DNA from: Escherichia coli
GTDB taxonomy: Bacteria; Pseudomonadota; Gammaproteobacteria; Enterobacterales; Enterobacteriaceae
DNA: 64,000 bases
Strand: one strand, 5' to 3'
NCBI RefSeq assembly: GCF_003334335.1
Contig: NZ_QOWQ01000002.1
How positions within the stretch are numbered: position 1 is the stretch's first letter; the number at the start of each line of letters is the position of its first letter. This document shows, piece after piece, positions 112 through 36,284 of the stretch. The translations under genes were made by a program, and so were the position numbers. The notes under the pieces are model-generated. The model saw nothing but the letters and a program-made list of their open reading frames with translations. It did not search any database and was not told where the DNA came from.

Positions 112-2285
<2,174 letters not shown>

Positions 2286-2383
2286 TACGTATCCTTATAC
2301 CTGAAATCTTCGCAAGTATGCCTGGCCGCGAGATTATGGCACACTTGTCCGGTTAACTCTCGTCTCATACAGGTAACACAAAC

Positions 2384-3520
2384 GTGAAAATCCTTGTTGA
2401 TGAAAATATGCCTTATGCCCGCGACTTATTTAGCCGTTTGGGTGAGGTGACCGCGGTTCCCGGGCGTCCAATCCCCGTCGCTCAACTGGCAGACGCGGAT
2501 GCGCTGATGGTGCGTTCGGTCACGAAAGTGAATGAATCTTTGCTGGCAGGAAAACCCATTAAATTTGTTGGCACTGCCACTGCGGGGACCGACCATGTCG
2601 ATGAAGCATGGTTGAAGCAGGCGGGAATTGGTTTTTCCGCTGCACCTGGCTGTAATGCGATTGCGGTGGTGGAATATGTTTTCTCCTCCCTGCTGATGCT
2701 TGCCGAACGCGATGGATTTTCACTGTACGACCGTACGGTGGGGATCGTGGGCGTTGGTAACGTTGGACGTCGATTGCAGGCGCGACTGGAAGCGTTAGGG
2801 ATTAAAACCTTACTTTGCGATCCGCCTCGCGCCGACCGTGGGGATGAGGGTGATTTCCGCTCGCTGGATGAGTTAGTCCAGCGCGCGGATATTCTGACTT
2901 TCCATACGCCACTCTTTAAAGATGGTCCGTACAAAACGCTACATCTGGCGGATGAAAAACTGATCCGTAGCCTGAAGCCCGGAGCGATTCTGATTAACGC
3001 CTGCCGTGGCGCAGTCGTCGATAATACTGCGTTGCTGACCTGCCTGAATGAAGGCCAGAAGTTAAGCGTAGTGCTGGATGTCTGGGAAGGCGAACCGGAA
3101 CTCAACGTCGAGCTGCTGAAAAAAGTGGATATCGGCACGCCGCATATCGCAGGCTATACCCTGGAAGGTAAAGCACGCGGTACTACGCAAGTGTTTGAAG
3201 CTTATAGCAAGTTTATTGGGCATGAACAGCACGTTGCGCTGGATACATTACTGCCTGCGCCAGAGTTTGGTCGCATTACGCTGCATGGCCCGCTCGATCA
3301 ACCGACGCTGAAAAGGCTGGTGCATTTGGTGTATGATGTGCGCCGCGATGACGCACCGCTGCGTAAAGTCGCCGGGATACCGGGTGAGTTCGATAAACTG
3401 CGCAAAAACTATCTTGAGCGCCGTGAATGGTCATCTCTGTATGTAATTTGTGATGACGCCAGTGCGGCATCATTGCTGTGTAAACTGGGTTTTAACGCCG
3501 TTCATCATCCGGCACGTTAA
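2384..3520 (+). CDS. pdxB: Erythronate-4-phosphate dehydrogenase
   Basis: 378-aa ORF with GTG start at 2384; D-2-hydroxyacid dehydrogenase NAD-binding motif GIVGVGNVG; N-terminus [12 protein letters not shown]. Confidence 0.93.
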
Positions 3521-7292: not shown

Positions 7293-8561
7293 ATGATTAT
7301 CAAACGCACTCCTCAAGCCGCGTCGCCTCTGGCTTCGTGGCTTTCTTATCTGGAAAACCTGCACAGTAAAACTATCGATCTCGGCCTTGAGCGCGTGAGC
7401 CTGGTCGCGGCGCGTCTTGGCGTCCTGAAACCAGCGCCATTTGTGTTTACCGTTGCGGGTACGAATGGCAAAGGCACCACCTGCCGTACGCTGGAGTCGA
7501 TTCTGATGGCGGCAGGGTACAAAGTGGGCGTCTACAGTTCGCCTCATCTGGTGCGTTATACCGAGCGCGTACGTGTGCAGGGCCAGGAATTGCCGGAATC
7601 GGCCCACACCGCCTCTTTTGCGGAGATTGAATCGGCACGCGGTGATATTTCCCTGACCTATTTCGAGTACGGTACGCTGTCGGCGTTGTGGCTGTTCAAG
7701 CAGGCACAACTTGACGTGGTGATTCTGGAAGTAGGGCTGGGCGGTCGTCTGGACGCAACCAATATTGTCGACGCCGATGTCGCGGTAGTAACCAGTATTG
7801 CGCTGGATCATACCGACTGGCTGGGTCCAGATCGCGAAAGTATTGGTCGCGAGAAAGCAGGCATCTTCCGCAGCGAAAAACCGGCAATTGTCGGTGAGCC
7901 GGAAATGCCTTCTACCATTGCTGATGTGGCGCAGGAAAAAGGTGCACTGTTACAACGTCGGGGCGTTGAGTGGAACTATTCCGTCACCGATCATGACTGG
8001 GCGTTTAGCGATGCTCACGGCACGCTGGAAAATCTGCCGTTGCCGCTTGTCCCGCAACCGAATGCCGCAACAGCGCTGGCGGCACTGCGTGCCAGCGGGC
8101 TGGAAGTCAGTGAAAATGCCATTCGCGACGGGATTGCCAGCGCAATTTTGCCGGGACGTTTCCAGATTGTGAGCGAGTCGCCACGCGTTATTTTTGATGT
8201 CGCGCATAATCCACATGCGGCGGAATATCTCACCGGGCGTATGAAAGCGCTACCGAAAAACGGGCGCGTGCTGGCGGTTATCGGTATGCTACATGATAAA
8301 GATATTGCCGGAACTCTGGCCTGGTTGAAAAGCGTGGTTGATGACTGGTATTGTGCGCCACTGGAAGGGCCGCGCGGTGCCACGGCAGAACAACTGCTTG
8401 AGCATTTGGGTAACGGCAAATCATTTGATAGCGTTGCGCAGGCATGGGATGCCGCAATGGCGGACGCTAAAGCGGAAGACACCGTGCTGGTGTGTGGTTC
8501 TTTCCACACGGTCGCACATGTCATGGAAGTGATTGACGCGAGGAGAAGCGGTGGCAAGTAA
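7293..8561 (+). CDS. folC: Dihydrofolate synthase / folylpolyglutamate synthase
   Basis: 422-aa ORF with P-loop GTNGKGT (Mur-ligase family); lies between accD and dedD. Confidence 0.95.
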   Translation: MIIKRTPQAASPLASWLSYLENLHSKTIDLGLERVSLVAARLGVLKPAPFVFTVAGTNGKGTTCRTLESILMAAGYKVGVYSSPHLVRYTERVRVQGQELPESAHTASFAEIESARGDISLTYFEYGTLSALWLFKQAQLDVVILEVGLGGRLDATNIVDADVAVVTSIALDHTDWLGPDRESIGREKAGIFRSEKPAIVGEPEMPSTIADVAQEKGALLQRRGVEWNYSVTDHDWAFSDAHGTLENLPLPLVPQPNAATALAALRASGLEVSENAIRDGIASAILPGRFQIVSESPRVIFDVAHNPHAAEYLTGRMKALPKNGRVLAVIGMLHDKDIAGTLAWLKSVVDDWYCAPLEGPRGATAEQLLEHLGNGKSFDSVAQAWDAAMADAKAEDTVLVCGSFHTVAHVMEVIDARRSGGK

Positions 8562-9213
8562 GTTTCAGAATCGGTTAGTGGGCACGATCGTGCTGGTGGC
8601 GCTGGGGGTGATTGTACTTCCAGGGCTGCTGGACGGGCAGAAAAAACATTATCAGGATGAGTTCGCGGCTATCCCGCTGGTGCCGAAAGCGGGCGATCGT
8701 GATGAGCCTGATATGATGCCAGCCGCCACCCAGGCGTTACCGACGCAGCCGCCGGAAGGCGCAGCGGAAGAGGTGCGGGCAGGTGATGCCGCAGCACCGT
8801 CGCTCGATCCGGCCACTATTGCAGCCAATAACACCGAGTTTGAACCGGAACCTGCACCGGTCGCCCCACCGAAGCCGAAACCGGTGGAGCCGCCTAAACC
8901 AAAGGTTGAAGCACCACCTGCGCCGAAGCCAGAACCGAAGCCGGTCGTGGAAGAAAAAGCTGCACCGACGGGTAAAGCCTATGTTGTGCAACTGGGTGCG
9001 CTGAAAAATGCCGATAAAGTGAATGAGATTGTCGGTAAGCTGCGCGGTGCCGGTTATCGGGTTTATACGTCGCCATCCACGCCAGTGCAGGGTAAAATTA
9101 CCCGTATTCTGGTTGGGCCGGATGCCTCGAAAGATAAGCTGAAAGGTTCGCTGGGTGAGTTGAAGCAACTTTCTGGCTTAAGTGGCGTGGTAATGGGCTA
9201 TACGCCGAATTAA
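8551..9213 (+). CDS. dedD: Cell-division protein DedD (SPOR domain)
   Basis: 220 aa from the GTG at 8551 (AGGAG Shine-Dalgarno at 8541-8545); N-terminal TM segment, Pro/Lys-rich linker and C-terminal SPOR-like domain; overlaps the folC 3' end by 11 nt. Confidence 0.85.
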   Translation: MASKFQNRLVGTIVLVALGVIVLPGLLDGQKKHYQDEFAAIPLVPKAGDRDEPDMMPAATQALPTQPPEGAAEEVRAGDAAAPSLDPATIAANNTEFEPEPAPVAPPKPKPVEPPKPKVEAPPAPKPEPKPVVEEKAAPTGKAYVVQLGALKNADKVNEIVGKLRGAGYRVYTSPSTPVQGKITRILVGPDASKDKLKGSLGELKQLSGLSGVVMGYTPN

Positions 9214-9222
9214 TACGGTCTT

Positions 9223-9308
9223 GCCTGATGCGACGCTGGCGCGTCTTATCAGGCCTACGCAGGGGTAGAACCGTAGGTCGGATAAGGCGTTTACGCCGCA
9301 TCCGACAC
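9223..9308. repeat. BIME: two inverted REP palindromic units
   Basis: gcctgatgcgacgctggcgcgtcttatcaggcctac (9223-9258) and gtaggtcggataaggcgtttacgccgcatccgacac (9273-9308) match the enterobacterial REP pattern. Confidence 0.75.
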
Positions 9309-9341
9309 GCATTGCCCGATGCCGCAAAGGCATAAAAAGTC

Positions 9342-9376
9342 GATGGCGTTGAATATTTTTTCAGCGCCATTTTTAT
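9342..9376 (+). terminator. Possible intrinsic terminator ending the accD-folC-dedD transcript
   Basis: atggcg...cgccat stem with a 15-nt loop, followed by TTTTTATT. Confidence 0.4.
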
Positions 9377-9399
9377 TGATGCGCGGGAAGGAAATCCCT

Positions 9400-9415
9400 A
9401 CGCAAACGTTTTCTT
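9400..9415 (+). promoter_or_regulatory. PurR operator (PUR box) at the cvpA-purF-ubiX promoter
   Basis: ACGCAAACGTTTTCTT matches the 16-bp PurR box consensus; a TAGAAT -10-like hexamer lies at 9423-9428. Confidence 0.7.
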
Positions 9416-9471
9416 TTTCTGTTAGAATGCGCCCCGAACAGGATGACAGGGCGTAAAATCGTGGGACACAT

Positions 9472-9960
9472 ATGGTCTGGATTGATTACGCCATAATCGC
9501 GGTGATTGCTTTTTCCTCTCTGGTTAGCCTGATCCGCGGCTTTGTTCGTGAAGCGTTATCGCTGGTGACATGGGGTTGTGCTTTCTTTGTTGCCAGTCAT
9601 TACTACACTTACCTGTCAGTCTGGTTTACGGGCTTTGAAGACGAACTGGTTCGAAATGGGATTGCCATCGCGGTACTGTTTATCGCTACCCTGATCGTTG
9701 GTGCTATCGTGAACTTCGTGATAGGCCAGTTGGTGGAGAAAACGGGGTTGTCAGGCACCGATCGGGTGCTGGGCGTCTGTTTCGGTGCGTTGCGCGGTGT
9801 GTTGATTGTTGCTGCCATTCTCTTCTTTCTCGACTCCTTTACCGGGGTGTCGAAAAGCGAAGACTGGAGCAAATCACAGCTGATCCCGCAATTCAGTTTT
9901 ATCATCAGATGGTTTTTTGATTATCTGCAAAGCTCGTCAAGTTTCTTGCCCAGAGCGTAA
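9472..9960 (+). CDS. cvpA: Colicin V production membrane protein CvpA
   Basis: 162-aa hydrophobic ORF immediately upstream of purF. Confidence 0.9.
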   Translation: MVWIDYAIIAVIAFSSLVSLIRGFVREALSLVTWGCAFFVASHYYTYLSVWFTGFEDELVRNGIAIAVLFIATLIVGAIVNFVIGQLVEKTGLSGTDRVLGVCFGALRGVLIVAAILFFLDSFTGVSKSEDWSKSQLIPQFSFIIRWFFDYLQSSSSFLPRA

Positions 9961-12359: not shown

Positions 12360-12376
12360 TGGCATAAGACCTGCAT
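12360..12376 (+). promoter_or_regulatory. Sigma-54 (-24/-12) promoter for argT
   Basis: TGGCATAAGACCTGCAT has GG and GC at exactly the consensus spacing of TGGCACG-N4-TTGCW; about 70 nt upstream of the argT start. Confidence 0.65.
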
Positions 12377-30720: not shown

Positions 30721-30770
30721 GCCTGATGTCGCATCCGGCGCTTATTGCCTGATGCGACGCAGACTCCGGC
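30721..30770. repeat. REP-like palindromic element between convergent yfbS and yfbR
   Basis: gcctgatgtcgcatccggcg...gcctgatgcgacgc carries REP-type inverted motifs. Confidence 0.5.
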
Positions 30771-35621: not shown

Positions 35622-36284
35622 ATGGATTATACGCTCACCCGCATAGATCCCAACGGTGAGAACGACCGTTACCCCCTGCAAAAGCAGGAGATCGTAACCG
35701 ACCCTCTGGAGCAAGAAGTTAACAAAAACGTGTTTATGGGCAAGCTCAATGACATGGTTAACTGGGGGCGTAAAAACTCAATTTGGCCGTATAACTTCGG
35801 TCTTTCCTGCTGTTACGTTGAGATGGTGACTTCGTTTACCGCGGTGCATGACGTGGCGCGTTTTGGCGCAGAAGTATTGCGTGCTTCGCCGCGTCAGGCT
35901 GACCTGATGGTGGTTGCAGGAACCTGCTTTACCAAAATGGCACCGGTTATTCAGCGTCTGTATGACCAGATGCTGGAACCAAAATGGGTTATCTCAATGG
36001 GTGCCTGTGCCAACTCTGGTGGTATGTACGATATTTATTCCGTTGTGCAGGGCGTCGATAAATTCATCCCGGTTGATGTGTATATCCCGGGCTGCCCGCC
36101 GCGTCCTGAAGCGTACATGCAGGCACTGATGCTGTTGCAGGAATCTATCGGCAAAGAACGTCGTCCGCTCTCCTGGGTGGTTGGCGATCAGGGCGTTTAT
36201 CGCGCCAATATGCAATCAGAGCGCGAACGCAAGCGCGGTGAACGCATTGCCGTAACTAACCTGCGTACACCTGACGAGATTTAA
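35622..36284 (+). CDS. nuoB: NADH:quinone oxidoreductase subunit B (N2 Fe-S cluster)
   Basis: 220-aa ORF with conserved Cys ligands (CCYVEM, GCPP). Confidence 0.97.

Follow-up and report, generated by a model that had tools for sequence, protein, structure and literature searches.

What separates the accD-folC-dedD transcription unit from the cvpA-purF genes that lie directly downstream of it in E. coli? We analyzed a window of 64,000 nucleotides of E. coli DNA (the whole stretch under study, from NCBI RefSeq assembly GCF_003334335.1, contig NZ_QOWQ01000002.1), whose plus strand carries folC, dedD, cvpA, and purF, with an intergenic spacer of 258 bp between dedD and cvpA at positions 9214 to 9471. 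A first-pass annotation had assigned the separation to a complex of two REP units and a hairpin acting together. Our analysis indicates that the spacer very probably consists of three layers that differ in age and role: a terminator, the cvpA promoter, and a BIME-2 unit.

Layout of the dedD-cvpA spacer

Over the 301 bases aligned around the dedD-cvpA spacer, the window shows no mismatch to MG1655 (NC_000913.3), and its positions convert to MG1655 coordinates, on the minus strand, as 2440235 minus the window coordinate. The features of the spacer are given below, with the evidence for each in parentheses.

9211–9213, plus strand: dedD stop codon, TAA (ORF list and RefSeq annotation)
9222–9258, minus strand: REP1, a Z2-type palindromic unit, TGCCTGATGCGACGCTGGCGCGTCTTATCAGGCCTAC (Z2 consensus, published REP query, fold)
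9226–9316, no strand: polymorphic BIME-2 unit of 91 bp (strain alignments, 60-genome sample)
9248–9258, plus strand: natural IS621 target ATCAGGCCTAC inside REP1 (target sequence, PMC11208160)
9259–9272, no strand: short linker GCAGGGGTAGAACC of 14 nt between the GTAG ends (sequence; recurs in every multi-copy unit)
9273–9307, plus strand: REP2, a Y-type palindromic unit, GTAGGTCGGATAAGGCGTTTACGCCGCATCCGACA, reading GTAGG...CATCCGACA (Y consensus, fold)
9319–9333, plus strand: small 5-bp hairpin AUGCC-gcaaa-GGCAU (fold −7.1 kcal/mol, z −1.8, not significant alone)
9342–9377, plus strand: intrinsic terminator of the accD-folC-dedD and folC-dedD transcripts (scan, fold, mapped 3' end, conservation)
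9400–9415, plus strand: PurR operator ACGCAAACGTTTTCTT (−36 to −21 relative to the TSS; PurR ChIP-chip; cross-species pattern)
9420–9428, plus strand: extended −10 element TGTTAGAAT of the cvpA promoter (sequence; TAGAAT)
9436, plus strand: TSS of cvpA-purF(-ubiX) (SMRT-Cappable-seq, 2430799)
9472–9474, plus strand: cvpA start codon, ATG (ORF list and RefSeq annotation)

The downstream part of the spacer holds the PurR-regulated cvpA promoter, as had been proposed from the sequence. Its 16-bp PurR box overlaps the promoter, and PurR ChIP-chip lists the identical sequence for cvpA-purF-ubiX in the form of the reverse complement, AAGAAAACGTTTGCGT (PMC3159470). Transcription starts at 9436, 8 nt after the −10 element; SMRT-Cappable-seq (PMC6131387) supports this TSS with 868 reads in its M9 sheet and 190 reads in the second one. 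The box begins 22 nt past the end of the terminator T-run, close to the 30 nt first estimated, and the terminator itself lies about 60 nt upstream of the TSS. Sequence conservation across Enterobacteriaceae is good in the 21 bases (GATGCGCGGGAAGGAAATCCC, 9379–9399) that separate the terminator from the PurR box, and this stretch may form an upstream promoter element.

An RpoN gSELEX study reported a peak in the cvpA/dedD spacer. A search for the RpoN motif TGGC-N8-TGC found none in 9214–9471, the nearest being TGGCATAAGACCTGC at 12360–12374, upstream of argT. Two minus-strand ORFs that overlap the spacer (9098–9370 and 9178–9333) run through REP sequence and were rejected as spurious. The RefSeq feature table contains zero REP features, even for REP325, which makes the missing REP annotation at this locus uninformative.

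Transcript ends and the terminator hairpin

The first-pass annotation had placed a hairpin with a T-run after the BIME. Indeed, the stem at 9342–9371 comprises 12 pairs, folds at −18 kcal/mol (z −7.0), and is followed by TTTTTATT (9370–9377), in which a U-run at 9370–9374 precedes AUU. A terminator scan by itself was not above chance, with 1 terminator found versus 2.0 expected from shuffles; we call this hairpin a terminator because of its conservation and its mapped RNA 3' end, not because of the scan. The smaller hairpin at 9319–9333, whose 5' flank GCCCGATGCC resembles a REP head, is kept in E. albertii and in the allele that has no BIME, and one Citrobacter has a diverged form of it.

Published SMRT-Cappable-seq data place a TTS at 2430860, which is window position 9375 (±1), at the end of the hairpin U-run (PMC6131387). 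Transcripts ending there start at the accD promoter (2433972) and span accD, folC, and dedD (PMC6131387), confirming that the proposed accD-folC-dedD unit exists. In the one of two sheets in which this TTS is called, 14 reads end at the site, 9 stop within 50 bp downstream, and 10 pass it; the median read-through is 487 nt, and the read-through transcripts listed are dedD-cvpA, dedD-cvpA-purF, and accD-folC-dedD-cvpA (PMC6131387). The TTS is not called in the M9 sheet of the same study, and the Term-seq data of Adams et al. (PMC7815308) show zero 3' ends between 2430606 and 2431708. Published 3'-end mapping, the check that had been suggested for this boundary, thus locates the end in one SMRT-Cappable-seq sheet and not in Term-seq. 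On these small counts, the hairpin appears to function as a terminator that leaks, stopping roughly two thirds of transcripts, and the insulation claimed for the locus is partial, with about one third read-through. As the 3' end lies downstream of the BIME, transcripts cross both REPs before stopping. The earlier claim that the complex as a whole insulates dedD from cvpA is therefore right in outline about the boundary, but the insulating element is the terminator and not the BIME.

An operon list (PMC5927463) likewise keeps folC-dedD apart from cvpA-purF-ubiX; it is derived from EcoCyc and is not independent. Two other sets of transcript ends were seen near the spacer. A strong RNA 3' end at window position 9629 (MG1655 2430606), 157 nt into the cvpA coding sequence, appears in at least two lists of the Term-seq tables and may be a premature termination or processing site. 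Upstream, SMRT-Cappable-seq maps TSSs inside folC at window positions 8298 and 8362 (MG1655 2431937 and 2431873; PMC6131387). These starts yield dedD, dedD-cvpA, and dedD-cvpA-purF transcripts, and dedD therefore has its own internal promoter or promoters.

We scanned other species, one genome per species, with a pattern made of the PurR box and the −10 element. The pattern matched exactly in at least 120 loci, mostly from Enterobacterales, and the distance between TAGAAT and the PurR box is fixed in every locus retrieved. A dedD homologue lies upstream in 111 among the at least 120 loci listed. In 67 of these 111 listed loci (51 distinct sequences), the PurR box is preceded, at a distance of 26 to 32 nt, by a hairpin with a T-run, and a GGCG/CGCC stem core occurs in 77 of the 119 distinct sequences among the matches listed. 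RNAalifold on MAFFT alignments of the terminator region returned no structure, with two sequence groups out of register. When the sequences were instead aligned on their GGCG/CGCC core and compared with slid-partner controls, the pairs flanking the core covaried (T.G, A-T, and T-A at one; T-A, C-G, and G-C at another). Pairing at variable positions reached 0.84 versus 0.23–0.65 when the partner column was slid by 1 to 3. Because its position is conserved and its base changes compensate each other, these comparisons indicate that the terminator is old and its structure selected.

The BIME-2 unit and its copy number

BIME-2 elements consist of Z2 and Y units joined by a short linker and occur as tandem copies whose number varies among strains (PMC3333891). 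Because the dedD-cvpA element combines a Z2 with a Y unit, in inverted orientation, over a short (S) linker, and varies in copy number among strains, we assign it to this class, with REP1, the linker, and REP2 forming one BIME-2 unit. The GTAG end of REP1 is on the minus strand, so that it reads as an "iREP" on the plus strand. Read as its reverse complement, REP1 agrees with the Z2 consensus of Nunvar et al., and in its plus-strand form it is identical in every letter to one REP query sequence among those used by Durrant et al. REP2 fits the Y consensus printed by Nunvar et al. Both fold stably against shuffled sequence (−21.4 kcal/mol and z −4.7 for REP1; −18.8 kcal/mol and z −5.0 for REP2). 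In each, GTAGG precedes a stem that contains internal mismatches, as befits a REP, a 30- to 40-nt imperfect palindrome with a GTAG foot, and the GTAG ends of the two face each other over 14 nt. Further, the elements are extragenic, lying within the dedD-cvpA spacer, and highly repeated: by megablast, a BIME query of 103 nt matches at a median of 18 places per E. coli genome. The first-pass reading of an inverted REP pair directly after the dedD stop, with REP1 beginning 9 bases past it, is thus upheld.

The best scores against the Rfam family naRNA4 (RF02564) were 38.3, 38.1, and 35.3 bits, all below the gathering threshold of 59.5; these matches represent generic REP resemblance only. More REP-like half-sites occur elsewhere in the window, at 30727–30759 (an inverted pair), 35887–35899, 42139–42151, and 47069–47082.

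A comparison of the spacer among strains bore out the expectation that REP copy number varies, from 0 to 7 units. The spacer measures 167, 235, 258, 314, 531, 713, and 804 bp in seven E. coli strains, and strain alignments give its length as 167 + 91n bp for whole units; the 91-bp unit is flanked by a TTGCC direct repeat (9221–9225 and 9312–9316). The terminator hairpin, the PurR box, and the −10 element are present in all seven aligned strains. With the BIME-less allele as the query, the locus was found in 5426 of 5426 complete E. coli genomes, from which we sampled 60 by even steps down the match ranking. One unit was present in 41 of the 60 sampled genomes, three units in 6, four in 6, none in 2, and seven in 1. 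Of the other 4, one has 1.5 copies, one a fused hybrid REP, one a variant of 162 bp, and one an IS insertion. Across E. coli strains, unit numbers of 0, 1, 1.5, 3, 4, 6, and 7 were seen: K-12, BL21, and O104:H4 have one unit, APEC O1 and both O157:H7 genomes sampled have four, and O55:H7 DEC5D has six. Polymorphism of REP/BIME copy number at fixed loci has already been published (PMC3333891).

The boundary of the unit, TGCC^TGAT, is also a site at which TnpA(REP) is reported to cleave (PMC3333891). This match fits gain and loss of units by a transposase, without proving it, and copy number would most likely shift by recombination or by cleavage of the TnpA(REP) type at the TGCC^T sites on either side of the unit. 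SMS-3-5 (L003, positions 415–649) and H83 have a 235-bp spacer with a single hybrid palindrome made of fused Z2 and Y units, an arrangement suggestive of a deletion between the REPs.

REP1 also contains ATCAGGCCTAC, the natural target of IS621, a bridge-RNA recombinase element (PMC11208160). In E. coli B25FEP (L008, positions 1624–3160), IS621, a member of the IS110 family, is inserted in REP1 between CT and AC, and its junctions, TTATCAGGCCT/TGTATT and ACAGTATCT/ACGCAGG, lead back to the published target.

Between species, the sequence from the dedD stop to the terminator is not conserved. Most of the listed Enterobacterales loci have a spacer without an E. coli-type REP, and short dedD-cvpA spacers are found in many genera. 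E. albertii has two BIME units at the locus, and a REP pair in diverged form occurs in one Citrobacter. In Pseudocitrobacter, several Enterobacter, Pluralibacter, and others, the slot is instead occupied by arrays of a palindromic repeat of an unrelated kind (CCCTCTCCC...GGGAGAGGG...GGGTGAGGGG); these arrays are tandem at loci L067, L085, L046, L019, L040, L097, and L127 and reach 548 bp in Pseudocitrobacter. The repeat may resemble boxC-type repeats. The slot between dedD and the terminator is a tolerant landing place for repeats, and the E. coli spacer is a recurrent site of landing and expansion for repeats and IS621.

Possible roles of the BIME and comparison with known systems

We are confident that the insulator at this boundary is the conserved terminator and not the BIME, and that the boundary is leaky, because the 3' end lies downstream of the REPs, the terminator is conserved where REPs are missing, and zero-BIME strains exist. 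In the arrangement that we propose, an ancestral terminator (9342–9371 plus the U-run) ends most accD/folC/dedD transcripts, and an ancestral PurR-repressed cvpA-purF-ubiX promoter begins a new transcript at 9436. The single BIME-2 unit, a member of the genome-wide REP/BIME family, is transcribed within the dedD 3' UTR, between the dedD stop and the terminator, and grows or shrinks in 91-bp steps between strains. The existence of natural alleles without any copy shows that the BIME is dispensable here. We infer that it adds little to insulation, and we regard it as a passenger of the dedD 3' UTR that is mobile and able to expand. By analogy with other REPs, any local effects are probably generic: a 3' UTR structure that slows 3' exonucleases and possibly some damping of dedD translation or binding of gyrase.

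It is possible, if doubtful, that a post-transcriptional role on dedD maintains the BIME, which would lower DedD by stalling terminating ribosomes, protect the mRNA from 3' exonucleases, or both. Translation of a gene can be reduced by a REP less than 16 nt from its stop codon (PMC12306157); here 9 nt separate the last base of the dedD stop (9213) from the first base of the REP1 stem (9223), a distance within that limit. The BIME is also transcribed as dedD 3' UTR, and at least one copy is present in most sampled E. coli, with two in E. albertii. However, the mature 3' end already has a stable terminator hairpin, zero-copy alleles occur naturally, and the same dedD-cvpA arrangement exists in other genera that have no E. 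coli-type REPs there.

We consider it improbable that the BIME is the main barrier, with REP hairpins pausing RNA polymerase and promoting termination, perhaps Rho dependent, and the downstream hairpin playing a secondary part. The REP hairpins are very stable, and BIMEs are reported to attenuate transcription and REPs to facilitate Rho-dependent termination, as relayed in citing papers. The sole mapped 3' end, however, is at the U-run of the downstream hairpin, outside the BIME, and the REPs are not followed by a U-run. Moreover, the terminator is conserved where the BIME is missing, both in other taxa and in some E. coli strains, and a range of 0 to 7 copies is unlike a tuned barrier. By analogy with the attenuation reports, a small contribution of the REPs to termination, added to that of the conserved terminator, would still be compatible with these data. 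A role of the BIME-2 as a DNA-level site of gyrase binding and cleavage, relaxing supercoils between the two codirectional units, is likewise improbable: citing papers relate that BIME-2 elements bind gyrase strongly, but copy number at this locus varies freely, down to zero.

Most improbable, in our estimate, is that the 0-to-7-copy polymorphism in the dedD 3' UTR acts as a natural dial on DedD output or on read-through into cvpA-purF. If it did, lineages such as K-12 and B (1 unit), the two sampled O157:H7 genomes and APEC O1 (4 units), and O55:H7 DEC5D (6 units) would differ heritably in the coupling of a division gene to purine genes. The locus offers a clean natural series of 0 to 7 units beside an unchanged terminator and promoter, which could be used to probe the effect of BIME copy number on a neighboring gene; no surprise is expected. 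All components of the spacer come from well-described classes in the best-studied bacterial genome, and the finding is correct, ordinary, and already explained. Its significance beyond annotation is slight: it separates the insulating terminator from the REP pair and shows that the boundary leaks.

The terminator-passenger arrangement can be compared with several known systems. Like canonical Rho-independent terminators, the hairpin has a G+C-rich stem base, a 6-nt loop, and a U-run, with a 3' end mapped there in one SMRT-Cappable-seq sheet; it differs from them in its read-through of about 30% in the only dataset that scores the site, and the label "novelTTS" given to it in the table of PMC6131387 means that no known terminator was matched there. 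As in BIME-1 elements (RIB/RIP), two inverted REPs stand at the 3' end of a transcription unit. BIME-1, however, is single-copy and combines a Z1 unit with a long conserved L linker that contains an IHF site (PMC3333891), whereas the dedD-cvpA element has a Z2-type unit, a 14-nt linker, and tandem amplification, and we rejected a BIME-1 identity for it. Among REP targets of IS621 and the IS110 family, REP1 has the exact target and the B25FEP insertion sits precisely there, whereas K-12 and the window have the target without an IS621 insertion. In organization, the element resembles REP325, the reference BIME-2 array, which lies between yjdM and yjdN in E. coli K-12 and is the source of naRNA4. 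Both have alternating Z2 and Y units in inverted orientation, short linkers, and a tandem number that varies among strains. They differ in that REP325 has six units of 100 bp each and K-12 dedD-cvpA one unit of 91 bp, and in their linkers, GCAGGGGTAGAACC and AGCCGTT at dedD-cvpA versus AAATTCCCGCACCCTCC and AACGGTGCCGACT in REP325.
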